Assembly: GCF_009931435.1 (NCBI RefSeq)
Contig: NZ_CP043414.1
Direction: 5' to 3' (one strand)
DNA length: 64,000 nucleotides
Source of the DNA: Escherichia coli
GTDB taxonomy: Bacteria; Pseudomonadota; Gammaproteobacteria; Enterobacterales; Enterobacteriaceae
In this document: in pieces, positions 18,677 through 23,606 of the stretch
How the letters are laid out: each line of letters starts with the position of its first letter
Position numbering within the stretch: the stretch's first letter is position 1
The notes under the pieces: generated by a model
The model's input: the letters and a program-made list of their open reading frames with translations, nothing else
What the model was told of the DNA's origin: nothing
The model's database searches: none
Made by a program: the position numbers and the translations under genes

Positions 18677-19458
18677 ACTTTATCCTTGCTCTGCGGTTTG
18701 CGCGCGGTGACATGAATATAACGCCCCAGGGTAATATACGGTTCCTGACGGCAATAACGCGTTTCTAATTCAAGTAATGCTTCATAGCAGTCGCGCTGCT
18801 GGTGCTTCTCGCGCAGGTAATCATGAAACACGCGAACGCCGGTCTTACCCATAATTTGCCAACCAGCTTCTTCCAGCCACAGATAAACCTGCGCCGGGTC
18901 GCGTGGATAATCTGGCGAAAGCGTCCGTTTTTTCTTTTTCGGCATTCCCGCCTGCACGTAATCAAAATTCCCTGCAACCATGTTATGCATCAGCAAGCCG
19001 TGCGCATTGTAGAACATTAACGACAACACACCGCCTGGACGCAACACTGACCACAGGGTCTGCAATACGCTGCGGGGATCGGCCACCCACTCGAGCACCG
19101 CATGGAACAATATCAGATCAACGGGCGTTTCCAAATGCGAAGCAACATCCTGAGCGGCGCAATGTATAAATTGCATGTTGTCGCTCACACCTTTTGCTTC
19201 TGCCGCCTGTTTTGCGCGGTCGATCATCTGCGCTGAAAGATCGCATAAAATGACCTGATGCCCACGCTCGGCCATTTTGATTGCGGTCTGCCCTTCTCCA
19301 CCGCCAGCATCCAGCACACGCAGTTTTTGCGAGCCCATTTCCGCCAGCACGCGATCGAGATCCTGCCACAGAATAGCCTGTCGAAGCTGCCCTTTGGTGG
19401 TGCCGTAAATGTTACGGGAAAACTTTTCCGCAATATCATCAAAATTGCGATCCTGCAT
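18673..19458 (-). CDS. cmoM: SAM-dependent methyltransferase CmoM/SmtA (tRNA cmo5U methyl ester formation)
   Basis: ORF 18673..19470; start at ATG 19458 ([19 protein letters not shown]...), 261 aa; SAM-binding motif VLDAGGGEG; 4-nt ATGA overlap with mukF. Confidence 0.92.
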
Positions 19459-19593
19459 TGCTTTCTCCACCGGTTGGCTAAGACGTTTTCTGATAAAGAC
19501 GCTATTTTGTCACAGCCACGGCGAGAATGAACCCGTCTGGTGTAATATCGCTGGCGATCCCTTGCTATATGGTCAAAAAAGGAACCAGAAAGG

Positions 19594-20373
19594 ATGCTTT
19601 TTACACTGAAAAAAGTGATTGGCGGTATGCTGCTGCCACTTCCGCTGATGTTGTTGATTATTGGCGCTGGCCTGGCGCTGCTGTGGTTTAGCCGTTTTCA
19701 AAAAACCGGGAAGATTTTTATTAGCCTTGGGTGGCTGGCGCTCTTGTTATTGAGTTTGCAACCGATAGCCGACCGCCTGCTGCGTCCCATCGAAAGCACC
19801 TATCCGACATGGAATAATTCGCAAAAAGTGGACTATATCGTGGTGCTCGGAGGTGGTTATACCTGGAACCCGCAGTGGGCACCGAGCTCGAATTTAATCA
19901 ATAACAGTCTGCCACGTCTGAATGAGGGTATTCGCTTATGGCGCGAAAATCCGGGATCAAAACTGATCTTCACGGGAGGCGTAGCAAAAACCAATACGGT
20001 GAGTACAGCCGAAGTAGGTGCAAGAGTTGCGCAATCGCTGGGTGTCCCTCGCGAGCAAATTATCACCCTGGATTTGCCAAAAGATACCGAAGAAGAAGCT
20101 GCGGCAGTGAAACAGGCGATTGGTGACGCCCCTTTCCTGCTGGTAACCTCCGCATCACATCTGCCGCGGGCGATGATCTTTTTTCAGCAGGAAGGGTTAA
20201 ATCCGCTGCCAGCCCCGGCGAACCAGTTGGCCATCGACTCGCCGCTTAATCCGTGGGAACGAGCAATCCCTTCTCCAGTCTGGTTAATGCATAGCGATCG
20301 TGTTGGCTATGAAACGCTTGGCCGCATCTGGCAGTGGCTGAAAGGTTCGTCAGGCGAGCCACGGCAAGAGTGA
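19594..20373 (+). CDS. elyC: Envelope biogenesis factor ElyC (DUF218 inner membrane protein)
   Basis: 259-aa ORF with N-terminal transmembrane segments; matches ElyC/YcbC. Confidence 0.9.
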   Translation: MLFTLKKVIGGMLLPLPLMLLIIGAGLALLWFSRFQKTGKIFISLGWLALLLLSLQPIADRLLRPIESTYPTWNNSQKVDYIVVLGGGYTWNPQWAPSSNLINNSLPRLNEGIRLWRENPGSKLIFTGGVAKTNTVSTAEVGARVAQSLGVPREQIITLDLPKDTEEEAAAVKQAIGDAPFLLVTSASHLPRAMIFFQQEGLNPLPAPANQLAIDSPLNPWERAIPSPVWLMHSDRVGYETLGRIWQWLKGSSGEPRQE

Positions 20374-21243
20374 TTTTGATGCCAGATCGAAGTTGCGCCG
20401 ACTAAATCGTCCGGTGTTGACCAGTTGCGCAACTTCATCCCATAACACATACAACCAACGCCGCCAGATGAACGACTCCGCCACTGGCGCGCGTTGCAGA
20501 TAACTCCAGAGCAAATCTTCCGCCAGAGAATTATCCATTAGTCGGAACAGTTCGTATTCTCGCGGTGCCCAAAGCATTAGTCCCGGTCCGACCATCGCCA
20601 GTAACTGATCGCTGCGCGAATCTTTCAGCATGCTGCGTAAACAGAAGTTACCGTGAATCAGCACACAATTGTCGTTAAAGCCTTCAAATAATGCCGGGAG
20701 ACATTCACGGGTGCGAAACAGGATCCGCTTATCCTGCATCGTTAGACCGGTGTTATTGAACTGATTGAGCGTAGTCCATAGCACTTCAACATGTTGCCGG
20801 TACCATGAGGGCCAGAAATTTTCCTGAGTATTGTCGACCGCGCCGACGCAACCACGACTGTCCTGACGGTGCCAGGCCAGTAAGGCTTCAACGATTTGGT
20901 CTTTGAGTTGTTCCCAGCGTTCTGGTGTTCGGGCTGGTGCCTCCACCGAAACACCACGCATTCGCTCCAGTAGCAGGACATCGGGGCCGGGGTGTTCTTC
21001 ATGCGTCATCACACCATAAATAGTCGGCATACGGACAGTCCCACTTCTTGCCAGCATGGTGGTTTTCCATGCCAGTTGTCGGGCTTTTCCGGGCGCACTA
21101 AAGCTTCTTGCCATTAACGGCATTGGGTTTCCCTGGCTGTCATACAAAGCCCACAACGCCGTATCCGCTTTTTCATTGACGCACTCAATACGACTGAGTT
21201 TTTCGCCCAGTAAATGGCTTAATTCGGCACGCAGCTGTTCCAT
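20350..21243 (-). CDS. ycbJ: Kinase-like (phosphotransferase-fold) protein YcbJ, function unknown
   Basis: 297-aa ORF matching YcbJ; its 3' end overlaps the elyC 3' end by 24 bp on the opposite strand. Confidence 0.88.
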   Translation of the reverse strand: MEQLRAELSHLLGEKLSRIECVNEKADTALWALYDSQGNPMPLMARSFSAPGKARQLAWKTTMLARSGTVRMPTIYGVMTHEEHPGPDVLLLERMRGVSVEAPARTPERWEQLKDQIVEALLAWHRQDSRGCVGAVDNTQENFWPSWYRQHVEVLWTTLNQFNNTGLTMQDKRILFRTRECLPALFEGFNDNCVLIHGNFCLRSMLKDSRSDQLLAMVGPGLMLWAPREYELFRLMDNSLAEDLLWSYLQRAPVAESFIWRRWLYVLWDEVAQLVNTGRFSRRNFDLASKSLLPWLA

Positions 21244-21339
21244 TCAGATTACCCTCATAAAAGCTACTGCTTTCATAATGAGCGCCAATATAAAAGATGT
21301 CACCTGAATGAGATCAATTGTTGAAAAGAAAAATTGAGG

Positions 21340-21387
21340 AAAATCGTAACGGTACGACACTCCTCCCAAAATTGGCTGGAGTGTCGT
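21340..21387 (-). terminator. Candidate terminator downstream of kdsB
   Basis: 10-bp stem ACGACACTCC...GGAGTGTCGT with a 14-nt loop, followed on the minus strand by a T-rich tract. Confidence 0.45.
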
Positions 21388-21396
21388 GAAGTGAAA

Positions 21397-22322
<926 letters not shown>

Positions 22323-22373
22323 AGTTCCTCCAGATGGATCGGGTTATGAATGCATAAATCTTATCATAATCAT

Positions 22374-23606
22374 TTATGCGACGGGGTCTATTTCCCAGCC
22401 GGCGCGGCAATCAGTAAAGAGGCCTTGCGGGCAGCGTCCTAATGTCACCCGCGTTGCCTGCTGCCAGTTAGCGAAATCAGTAATCGCCTGACGTAACCCT
22501 TTTTGCAGCGTTGTCGTTGGTTTAATGCCTTCCTGTAACCACAGAGAGATAACTTCAAGGATGCCTGTCTGGCGATGCATTTTGGCATCCATTCGCCCAA
22601 CTAATTGCCCACGATGTAATAACGGCAGAACAAAATAGCCATACTGGCGTTTCGGCGCTGGGGTATAGCACTCCAGCCGGTAGCTAAAATCAAAAAGCTG
22701 CTCCGCGCGTTTGCGATCCCAGACAACAGGATCAAAAGGCGAAAGTACCGCGCTGTGCGTTGCAGTGAGCTTTCCGGCGAGCGCGCGTTCGAGTAGCGGC
22801 AGCAAATCAGCATGCAACCAAAGATTGCCCAATTTTTCAACATGCACAGCAATGATTTGCTGCTGTTCAGCCCTCGCTTCGCGCCAAGCCGCCAGTGCCG
22901 GACGTTTCAGCCGATAGTAATCTGCCAGCCACTGTTCGCGGAATATGCCCAGGCTACGCGCACTGTTATCCAGCATGATGATTTCTGCTTCTGTTTGCGA
23001 AACGAGATCGCGCTCATCATCACAGTCAGGCATGACACGGTGGGTTAAATCATAAACGCGCTGGAAGTTGCGCCGTTCAATCACCATCACCTTTCCAGCA
23101 GTAAATAAACCTTCCAGATGCCGTTTATGCGGCTTCCATTCCCACCAGCCGCTTGCACCTTTACGAGAATGCTCGAAATCGGCTGAACGTACCGGCCCCT
23201 TATCATGAATATGTTGAATTAACTGTGCAATTTCTGCCGCATGTTCCTGCATCCAGGCGTCTTTGTATTTCCAGCCCATTTTTTCAGGTGCCAGCATGCG
23301 GTGGCGAATAAGACGAAAATCGCTACGTGGCATAAAGCAGGCTTCATGCGCCCAGTATTCCATTAATTCGCCACGCGCCAGAGACTCATCCAACCACTGC
23401 GCAGGATAATTTCCCAGACGACTGAAAAGCACCAGATATGGGCTACGGGCAACAATATTGATGGTATCAATTTGCAGCAAGGACATGCGGGAAATCGTTG
23501 CCAGAATATCTTCCAACGACGCTCGACGGCGGGGTTTGTTTAACAGGCCTTGCGCAGCAAGGTGAAGATTACGCGCATCAGCAAGGGAGAGGTGCGGCAG
23601 CGACAT
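22374..23606 (-). CDS. ycaQ: Winged-helix DNA glycosylase YcaQ (AlkZ-like, interstrand crosslink repair)
   Basis: 410-aa ORF matching YcaQ. Confidence 0.9.
   Translation of the reverse strand: MSLPHLSLADARNLHLAAQGLLNKPRRRASLEDILATISRMSLLQIDTINIVARSPYLVLFSRLGNYPAQWLDESLARGELMEYWAHEACFMPRSDFRLIRHRMLAPEKMGWKYKDAWMQEHAAEIAQLIQHIHDKGPVRSADFEHSRKGASGWWEWKPHKRHLEGLFTAGKVMVIERRNFQRVYDLTHRVMPDCDDERDLVSQTEAEIIMLDNSARSLGIFREQWLADYYRLKRPALAAWREARAEQQQIIAVHVEKLGNLWLHADLLPLLERALAGKLTATHSAVLSPFDPVVWDRKRAEQLFDFSYRLECYTPAPKRQYGYFVLPLLHRGQLVGRMDAKMHRQTGILEVISLWLQEGIKPTTTLQKGLRQAITDFANWQQATRVTLGRCPQGLFTDCRAGWEIDPVA

Follow-up and report, generated by a model that had tools for sequence, protein, structure and literature searches.

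Probable pseudokinase nature of Escherichia coli YcbJ, a conserved FN3K/APH-like protein with stepwise loss of its catalytic residues

The 64,000-nucleotide stretch of Escherichia coli DNA analysed here (the window; contig NZ_CP043414.1 of assembly GCF_009931435.1) carries ycbJ, a minus-strand gene at positions 20350..21243 whose open reading frame (ORF) of 297 amino acids plus stop encodes a protein with a predicted fructosamine-3-kinase/aminoglycoside-phosphotransferase (FN3K/APH)-like kinase fold and a degenerate active site. Its convergent neighbour on the plus strand is elyC (19594..20373), which encodes a DUF218 envelope biogenesis factor, and upstream of ycbJ, in the same direction, lies the CMP-Kdo synthetase gene kdsB (21397..22143, minus strand); both neighbours are supported by the ORF list and by RefSeq annotation. 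The Pfam DUF218 domain, marking the elyC counterpart, was detected in orthologous loci, and the position of kdsB upstream of ycbJ is conserved in nearly all loci surveyed. The original prediction had placed ycbJ directly upstream of kdsB-ycaR-ycaQ-lpxK-msbA, but this geometry is reversed: all of these genes are, like ycbJ, on the minus strand, and transcription runs from msbA through lpxK, ycaQ, ycaR and kdsB to ycbJ. The latter thus comes last and farthest downstream, 153 bp past the kdsB stop, with a Shine-Dalgarno-like GAGGG about 10 nt 5' of its ATG. A match to the 1.9-kb stretch showed that elyC, ycbJ (as 'YcbJ family phosphotransferase') and kdsB are annotated by RefSeq in 5425 of 5426 complete E. 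coli genomes.

Kinase-like phosphotransferases usually carry an H-G-D-x-x-x-x-N catalytic loop, and the original prediction, reading the YcbJ translation by eye, had proposed that the catalytic Asp of this loop is an Asn, which would make the protein a pseudokinase or an enzyme of non-standard chemistry. The region in question reads VLIHGNFCLRSM over residues 194–205 and NCVLIHGNFCLRSMLKD over residues 192–208. We placed it with several kinds of alignment. A first homologue search returned only orthologues of at least 86% identity, which were uninformative on the motif; a second search, seeded with the Plesiomonas orthologue, added diversity, and exhaustive HMMER searching across 1.84 billion cluster representatives yielded 205 proteins, about 40 of them full-length relatives at 16–28% identity. 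These distant relatives carry the whole canonical set: a G-x-G-x-Y-G loop, the Lys of V-x-K, the αC Glu, H-G-D-x-x-x-x-N and I-D-P. An alignment of 28 such canonical relatives has K, E, H, D, N and D as its only invariant columns.

The by-eye placement proved right. MAFFT alignment of 43 homologues and L-INS-i alignments of 48 and 54 sequences all put N199 of YcbJ on the catalytic Asp. The profile alignment to kinase-like families that had been proposed as a check gave the same answer: hhalign of 18 YcbJ orthologues against the 28 canonical relatives (probability 100%, E 1.5e-43) put R46, L57, N199, S204 and G219 on the catalytic columns. When the family profile was compared with the sequences of solved FN3Ks, its HGD..N and IDP motifs matched HGDLWxGN and DPA (best E 1e-13), a comparison that needed the profile, as a search of PDB chains with the single YcbJ sequence returned only noise (E >= 0.38). 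The flanking motifs LIHG, xLxD and WAxRE align exactly. A pattern search of the protein for a canonical loop elsewhere found no second H-x-D...N loop, and the sole match to [LVIFM][LVIFMC]-H-[GSDA] is HGNFCLRS itself.

According to these alignments, all five catalytic residues are replaced in E. coli YcbJ. In the degenerate catalytic loop (codons H197–S204, HGNFCLRS, at 20632..20655, minus strand; MAFFT, L-INS-i, hhalign and family-profile alignments), N199 occupies the position of the catalytic Asp, S204 that of the metal-binding Asn and C201 that of Trp219 of FN3K. V218-G219-P220 (20584..20592, minus strand) aligns to I-D-P, so that Gly replaces the DFG-type metal-binding Asp; R46 (21106..21108, minus strand) stands at the position of the ATP-anchoring β3 Lys, K41 of human FN3K; and L57 (21073..21075, minus strand) stands at that of the αC Glu that pairs with this Lys. 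The Gly-rich loop is also gone, NEKADTALW being found instead of GxGxYGxVY.

The order in which these residues were lost can be read from a census of orthologues. A scan of one genome per species, with 283 relatives of which 80 were kept, gave named orthologues across the Enterobacterales, and the final set comprised 82 syntenic orthologues (81 loci and the window's E. coli gene), with orthology established by the conserved order msbA-lpxK-(ycaQ)-ycaR-kdsB-ycbJ, followed by convergent elyC and then cmoM-mukFEB. At the six positions K46, E57, H197, D199, N204 and D219, only Plesiomonas (2 of the 81 loci) keeps the full catalytic kit, K-E-H-D-N-D, together with a G-x-G loop. The 55 loci from Yersiniaceae, Pectobacteriaceae, Erwiniaceae, Hafniaceae and the Sodalis group read K-E-H-N-S-N; Cedecea, Dryocola and Tenebrionibacter read K-(Q/I)-H-N-S-N, with Cedecea in the K-Q-N-S-N state; and core Enterobacteriaceae read R-L-H-(N/S/C/H)-S-(G/N/S/E), the window's gene being R-L-H-N-S-G. 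Within this last group, position 199 is N in Escherichia, Salmonella and Citrobacter, S in Kosakonia and Raoultella, C in a Klebsiella metagenome-assembled genome and H in Kluyvera; G, N, S and E all occur at position 219, and both R and K at position 46.

Because the syntenic Plesiomonas orthologue retains the complete kit, the ancestor of YcbJ would have been a normal kinase, and the states found in each group show that catalytic loss was stepwise. The D/N/D set went first, at the base of the non-Plesiomonas families of the Enterobacterales, followed by the Glu and then by the Lys in core Enterobacteriaceae. The variation at positions 199 and 219 in Enterobacteriaceae is what would be expected of residues that are no longer catalytic, suggesting that drift at these sites set in after the chemistry had been lost. 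As for the distant canonical relatives, their gene context (Chitiniphilus, and the uncultured-genome contigs L094 and L095) shows no link to kdsB or elyC and gives no clue to the ancestral substrate. On L094 and L095, the canonical relative P0296 clusters with a second FN3K/APH-type kinase, a GNAT acetyltransferase, a nucleotidyltransferase, a NUDIX hydrolase and a MATE/MurJ-type transporter, a layout that looks like an antibiotic- or metabolite-modification island.

The gene that has lost these residues is under strong purifying selection. Across E. coli, Salmonella, Enterobacter and Kluyvera, the ratio of nonsynonymous to synonymous substitution (dN/dS) of ycbJ is 0.02–0.09, with pN of 0.06–0.15 against pS of 0.67–0.78 and synonymous sites near saturation; the corresponding values are 0.03–0.08 for elyC and 0.03–0.07 for the essential kdsB. 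YcbJ is 90% identical in amino acids between E. coli and Salmonella, and its ORF is intact, at 296–301 amino acids, in 82 of 82 species. Across 18 orthologues from at least five families, 83 columns are invariant, among them HG, PG, WAPRE and the block W124-H-x-x-D128-S-x-G...Q140-x-N142-x-W144..W147-Y148, and the remodelled motifs HGNLxLRSMLK and LLAMxNPGxxLWAPRE are themselves highly conserved across families. YcbJ protein has also been detected by mass spectrometry, with 4 peptides (PMC6857472). Since purifying selection has been maintained throughout, YcbJ has some function.

Next, the protein was compared with family profiles and its structure was modelled. The NCBIfam equivalog profile NF007890 (PRK10593) matches E. 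coli YcbJ over its full length (1–297) with 568.7 bits against a cut-off of 319, and Pfam APH (PF01636) passes marginally, with 27.9 bits against a threshold of 23.2, its score falling from 67 bits in the Plesiomonas orthologue to 22–28 bits. For PF03881 (threshold 22.4), E. coli YcbJ gave no hit at E<=10, and the orthologues of Plesiomonas (40.8 bits), Yersinia (33.8 bits) and Serratia (27.1 bits) all score above threshold. The structure prediction that had also been proposed as a check gave a confident AlphaFold2 model (43-sequence alignment; mean pLDDT 93.8, pTM 0.89), which in a Foldseek search of the PDB matched the FN3Ks of T. fusca (3f7w), H. somnus (3jr1) and human (9cxo/8ue1) as well as APH(2'')-Ia and APH(4)-Ia, at TM scores of 0.65–0.73 and E of about 1e-12. 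As modelled, the kinase-like bilobal fold of YcbJ is intact. An ancestry in Kdo kinases (KdkA-like), prompted by the kdsB neighbour, was considered and dropped, as there was no Pfam Kdo-family signal at E<=10.

The upstream region of ycbJ carries a putative promoter of its own. A promoter scan, a pattern search and cross-species spacing together point to a promoter with an FNR-like box at 21275..21317 (minus strand): the box, TTGATCTCATTCAG, lies at 21317..21304 and is followed by a predicted GTGACA (21303..21298), a 17-nt spacer and a -10 element, CATTAT (21280..21275), which puts the centre of the box about 42.5 nt upstream of the predicted start. When the window alone is searched with the FNR consensus, the 39 matches do not exceed chance (33 expected), and the comparison across species carries the signal. 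In 76 of 82 loci, a TTGAT half-site precedes the ATG by 60–105 nt, and in 71 of 82 loci a -10-like hexamer follows 36–37 nt past TTGAT(C), with the rest of the spacer unalignable; the resulting centre at -41.5/-42.5 is the geometry of a class-II FNR site. TTGAT within the coding region (26 of 81) is a poor control, as homologous coding sequence is not independent, and the fixed spacing of 36–37 nt is the meaningful signal. The site is absent in P. shigelloides, whose YcbJ retains the catalytic kit. Published work lists ycbJ as a separate transcription unit and as activated by FNR (PMC2634741); it belongs to a small conserved set of genes induced by oxygen limitation, 6.1-fold in Dickeya, 4.9-fold in Pectobacterium and 3.3-fold in E. 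coli (PMC3349551), and this core list includes it for Y. intermedia as well (PMC3792023). The conserved class-II FNR-type layout fits this published anaerobic induction.

Directly after the kdsB stop, at 21354..21387 on the minus strand, lies a hairpin of 10+3 bp with a predicted RNA folding energy of -22.2 kcal/mol (z = -4.8; none of 200 shuffles as good), with a U-rich tract about 10 nt further on; Salmonella likewise conserves the downstream ACCGTTACGATTTTCCTC. This hairpin is a probable terminator or 3' stabiliser of kdsB, separating it from ycbJ. In nine loci of Dickeya, Pectobacterium and Lonsdalea, an insertion of 1.7–2.1 kb separates kdsB from ycbJ; in one Dickeya locus (L012) the insertion carries a pectate-lyase-like β-helix gene (Pel9A-like), and the promoter footprint stays with ycbJ despite the insertion.

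At its other end, ycbJ overlaps elyC tail to tail by 24 bp (20350..20373, from the ORF list), as the original prediction had stated. The overlap encodes the invariant C-terminus of YcbJ, LLPWL ((S)LLPWLA), and the variable tail of ElyC, SGEPRQE. Its extent differs between groups (negative values are overlaps, positive values gaps), from -18 to -36 bp in all Enterobacteriaceae sampled to -49 bp in Pectobacterium, -8 to -24 bp in Erwiniaceae and mostly -4 to +30 bp in Serratia, Yersinia and Plesiomonas; in Y. similis, the nearest ElyC-like match is 431 bp away. No elyC was detected beside an intact ycbJ in four Edwardsiella loci, in Hafnia, in Y. pestis and in two further loci (L029 and L003), and thus the two genes are not obligatorily linked.

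The overlap has consequences for published genetics. According to a preprint (10.1101/2025.02.11.637708), the library deletion of ycbJ inactivates elyC. This is the reason that ycbJ and elyC mutants cluster phenotypically, and the published high-throughput phenotypes of ycbJ mutants are therefore confounded. We take the Keio design to keep the last 21 nt of its target; a deletion from 20371 would then remove the elyC stop (20371–20373) and produce a read-through ElyC. The 2014 ElyC paper does not mention ycbJ. The overlap itself is real, ordinary and already known, and it is more a reason for caution about ycbJ phenotypes than evidence of an envelope function. Such a function had been suggested from the neighbouring genes, but the geometry had been read the wrong way round, an FNR-type promoter serves ycbJ separately, the literature treats the gene as a transcription unit of its own, it persists without elyC beside it in Edwardsiella, Hafnia and Y. 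pestis, and the sole envelope-like deletion phenotype has been attributed to elyC inactivation; an envelope role for YcbJ is unsupported.

Three further observations concern the surrounding sequence. Rfam detected no RNA family within positions 19000–22500 of the window. Two other ORFs in the ycbJ region, of 86 amino acids (20742..21002, minus strand) and 83 amino acids (21056..21307, plus strand), were set aside as out-of-frame shadows of ycbJ. Over positions 19500–21400, one genome (strain 2020CK-00188) matches at 100% identity, only 3 of 5425 E. coli genomes reach 99% or more, and all the others fall at 95–99%. The window appears to derive from a lineage of E. coli that is uncommon or divergent.

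Together, these data make it probable that YcbJ of E. coli, a member of the FN3K/APH branch of the protein-kinase-like superfamily, is a pseudokinase that selection maintains in a non-catalytic state. The biochemistry of human FN3K is a guide here: its catalytic Asp217 hydrogen-bonds O3'/O4' of the sugar, D217N completely abolishes activity, D234N, in the Asp of the DPA motif, has no activity, and W219F is inactive (PMC11754801). Since YcbJ carries the natural equivalents of the dead D217N and D234N variants, it probably performs no canonical phosphotransfer, and the rules relating kinase structure to function suggest that the E. coli protein probably binds neither nucleotide nor metal productively. 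In the mechanism that we favour, YcbJ would be a soluble protein that keeps the bilobal FN3K/APH fold and has lost canonical phosphate transfer through the loss of ATP anchoring (β3 Lys, αC Glu and Gly-rich loop), of Mg2+ binding (Asn and DFG-type Asp) and of activation of the substrate hydroxyl (catalytic Asp). Its FNR-type promoter would drive expression mainly when oxygen is limiting, and the protein would most likely work by binding or as a scaffold rather than by catalysis, with either a protein partner or a small ligand held in the substrate lobe that it has retained. The pseudokinase half of the original prediction is thereby strengthened, five catalytic residues and the Gly-rich loop having been lost under strong purifying selection.

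A lead to the ligand comes from the invariant YcbJ segment TQENFWPSWY, in which Q140, N142, W144 and W147 do not vary. In the profile alignment it resembles PQVNEW...W of FN3K, with spacing that differs by 1–3 residues, and the P-Q-x-N-x-W...W segment of FN3K adjoins the sugar-binding turn (profile alignment; PMC11754801). As the T-Q-E-N-x-W...W-Y block of YcbJ is invariant and resembles this segment, it suggests that YcbJ retained a ligand cradle even as it shed the ATP machinery.

Several points weigh against calling the protein non-catalytic. Kinase-fold proteins once called dead catalyse other reactions, such as AMPylation by SelO/YdiU and glutamylation by SidJ, and CASK functions without the metal-binding Asp. 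In the K-E-H-N-S-N families, the retained Lys and Glu and the two isosteric Asn could permit metal-free nucleotide binding; a compensating residue reaching into the YcbJ pocket may be structurally possible; and the orthologues carry invariant polar residues of their own, R203, D128, S129, D137, Q140 and N142. YcbJ might accordingly be an enzyme with non-canonical chemistry in a remodelled pocket (HGN...S, N/G-P-G and the invariant R203, D128, S129, Q140 and N142), performing metal-independent phosphotransfer, a SelO-like nucleotidylation in which the nucleotide is flipped, or conversion of a ketose-type substrate without any nucleotide. The conservation of the degenerate motifs HGNLxLRSMLK and LLAMxNPGxxLWAPRE, along with the 83 invariant columns, speaks for this, as do the earliest changes, which are isosteric D to N and not random, the persistence of K46 and E57 in 55 or more species, the occurrence of the same HGN/NPA pair in 3jr1, which suggests a recurrent functional state, and the precedent of SelO and SidJ. 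However, the five catalytic positions drift in core Enterobacteriaceae (199 N/S/C/H, 219 G/N/S/E, 46 R/K among them), which is hard to reconcile with catalysis, and SelO-type enzymes keep the metal-binding Asp and the Lys, of which E. coli YcbJ has neither, its Gly-rich loop also being gone. We therefore consider an enzyme of this kind unlikely overall, somewhat favoured for the K-E-H-N-S-N families and disfavoured for the Enterobacteriaceae, in which the former catalytic positions drift.

The pseudokinase reading can also be taken in a more specific direction, which we offer as speculation and rate as doubtful: YcbJ might be an anaerobically induced, FNR-controlled pseudokinase derived from an FN3K-like sugar kinase, with its sugar/ketosamine-binding lobe kept and its ATP machinery lost, that serves as a ligand sensor or as the allosteric regulator of a partner, possibly in the pathway for envelope precursors that its neighbours encode (KdsB with CMP-Kdo; ElyC with the undecaprenyl-phosphate-linked precursors of enterobacterial common antigen and peptidoglycan). 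If true, it would be among the first bacterial pseudokinases derived from a small-molecule kinase with a defined regulatory role, and Plesiomonas would represent the living 'before' state.

It is very unlikely that the locus acts mainly at the RNA level, with convergent overlapping transcription (an excludon) tuning elyC and the protein secondary. The 24-bp coding overlap, the listing of ycbJ-elyC among 165 convergent excludons detected by RNA-seq in E. coli (PMC12288877), an overlap or a gap of at most 30 bp in most Enterobacterales loci, and the possibility that anaerobic induction of ycbJ lowers elyC are all in keeping with such a role. An RNA function would not, however, need purifying selection on the protein (dN/dS 0.02–0.09), intact ycbJ occurs where elyC is absent alongside (Edwardsiella four times, Hafnia, Y. 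pestis), and the protein has been seen by mass spectrometry. We give still less credence to YcbJ as a decaying gene or functionless relic, for which one might cite the loss of all catalytic residues and the lack of a known clean phenotype: an intact ORF of 296–301 amino acids in 82 of 82 species, a locus present in 5425 of 5426 complete E. coli genomes, synonymous sites that are saturated against 90% amino-acid identity between E. coli and Salmonella, and a conserved promoter footprint all oppose it, and it is effectively refuted by the selection data. Finally, a misplaced alignment of the motif, with YcbJ an ordinary kinase whose canonical loop lies elsewhere, has next to no probability and is, as far as the sequence comparison goes, already refuted, for although the weak Pfam APH match (27.9 bits) could make any single alignment unreliable, four independent alignments agree, HGNFCLRS is the only such loop present and the flanking motifs match exactly.

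The ycbJ gene, its fold assignment, its anaerobic induction and its overlap with elyC are already known; we did not find the complete, stepwise and selected catalytic loss in YcbJ in the searchable literature. The Plesiomonas protein, from its retained kit, is predicted to be the surviving active orthologue, and the family thus offers a natural series from kinase to pseudoenzyme, from Plesiomonas (K-E-D-N-D) through Yersinia/Serratia (K-E-N-S-N) and Cedecea (K-Q-N-S-N) to Escherichia (R-L-N-S-G), in which orthology is not in doubt because synteny is fixed. In E. coli, Salmonella, the Klebsiella group, Yersinia and plant pathogens, ycbJ belongs to the core genes, and the NCBI label 'phosphotransferase' stands on thousands of genomes. 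If YcbJ cannot be the usual phosphotransferase, this annotation is misleading and hunts for a kinase substrate would fail, and the genetics of ycbJ have been uninformative because the library deletion damages elyC.

Among known systems, the FN3Ks (PF03881; human FN3K, T. fusca 3f7w, E. coli YniA-type) are the closest structural match to YcbJ, at TM scores of 0.70–0.73. Both are single-domain proteins of about 290–300 amino acids with no activation segment, and they share the H-G-x loop, x-P-(A/G) in place of DFG and the W-x-D/P-R-E motif. Unlike FN3K, YcbJ lacks the Trp of HGDLW (HGNFC in E. coli), and even its canonical active relatives have HGDYN. In FN3K terms, YcbJ of the Yersinia/Serratia type is a natural D217N/D234N/N222S triple variant, to which the E. 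coli protein adds K41R and the loss of the αC Glu, with C201 at the Trp position. The APH enzymes (PF01636; APH(2'')-Ia and APH(4)-Ia) have the same fold, at TM scores of 0.65–0.72, and it is the Pfam APH match just above threshold that gave rise to the database name 'YcbJ family phosphotransferase'; unlike them, YcbJ lacks the defining catalytic residues and any resistance-gene context, its gene being chromosomal, syntenic and order-wide.

The structural-genomics entry 3jr1, a 'putative fructosamine-3-kinase' of H. somnus, reads ILHGNLWIEN...VCNPA against HGDLWxGN and DPA in FN3K. It is the match with the best TM score (0.73–0.74), and its catalytic and metal-binding positions show the D-to-N changes that are also seen in YcbJ of the Yersinia/Serratia type. 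Unlike YcbJ, it keeps the loop Asn and the FN3K Trp; it shares only 12–13% identity and lies in the YniA/FN3K branch, and its D-to-N change is therefore independent, which suggests that FN3K-like proteins with degenerate catalytic sites have arisen repeatedly in Gammaproteobacteria. With the convergent excludons, whose overlapping 3' ends interfere with each other's transcription, ycbJ-elyC shares overlapping convergent transcription units (a 24-bp coding overlap here, transcript overlap in PMC12288877), and the pair is a candidate for such mutual repression. Among the species of the order, the overlap ranges from -49 to +30 bp or beyond with neither gene lost.

SelO/YdiU, an active AMPylase, keeps its metal ligands, in contrast to E. 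coli YcbJ, which keeps neither the metal-binding Asp nor the Lys. On the operational definition of a pseudokinase, which combines the fold, the loss of at least one essential catalytic residue and evolutionary conservation, YcbJ counts as one, with a kinase-like modelled fold, five of five residues lost in the alignments and a conserved sequence. Like STRAD, HER3 and IRAK3, it has a kinase fold that is missing its catalytic residues and is conserved by selection; these, however, are mostly eukaryotic derivatives of protein kinases that act as allosteric partners of active kinases, whereas YcbJ comes from a small-molecule kinase and is a stand-alone bacterial protein without a known active paralogue as its partner.

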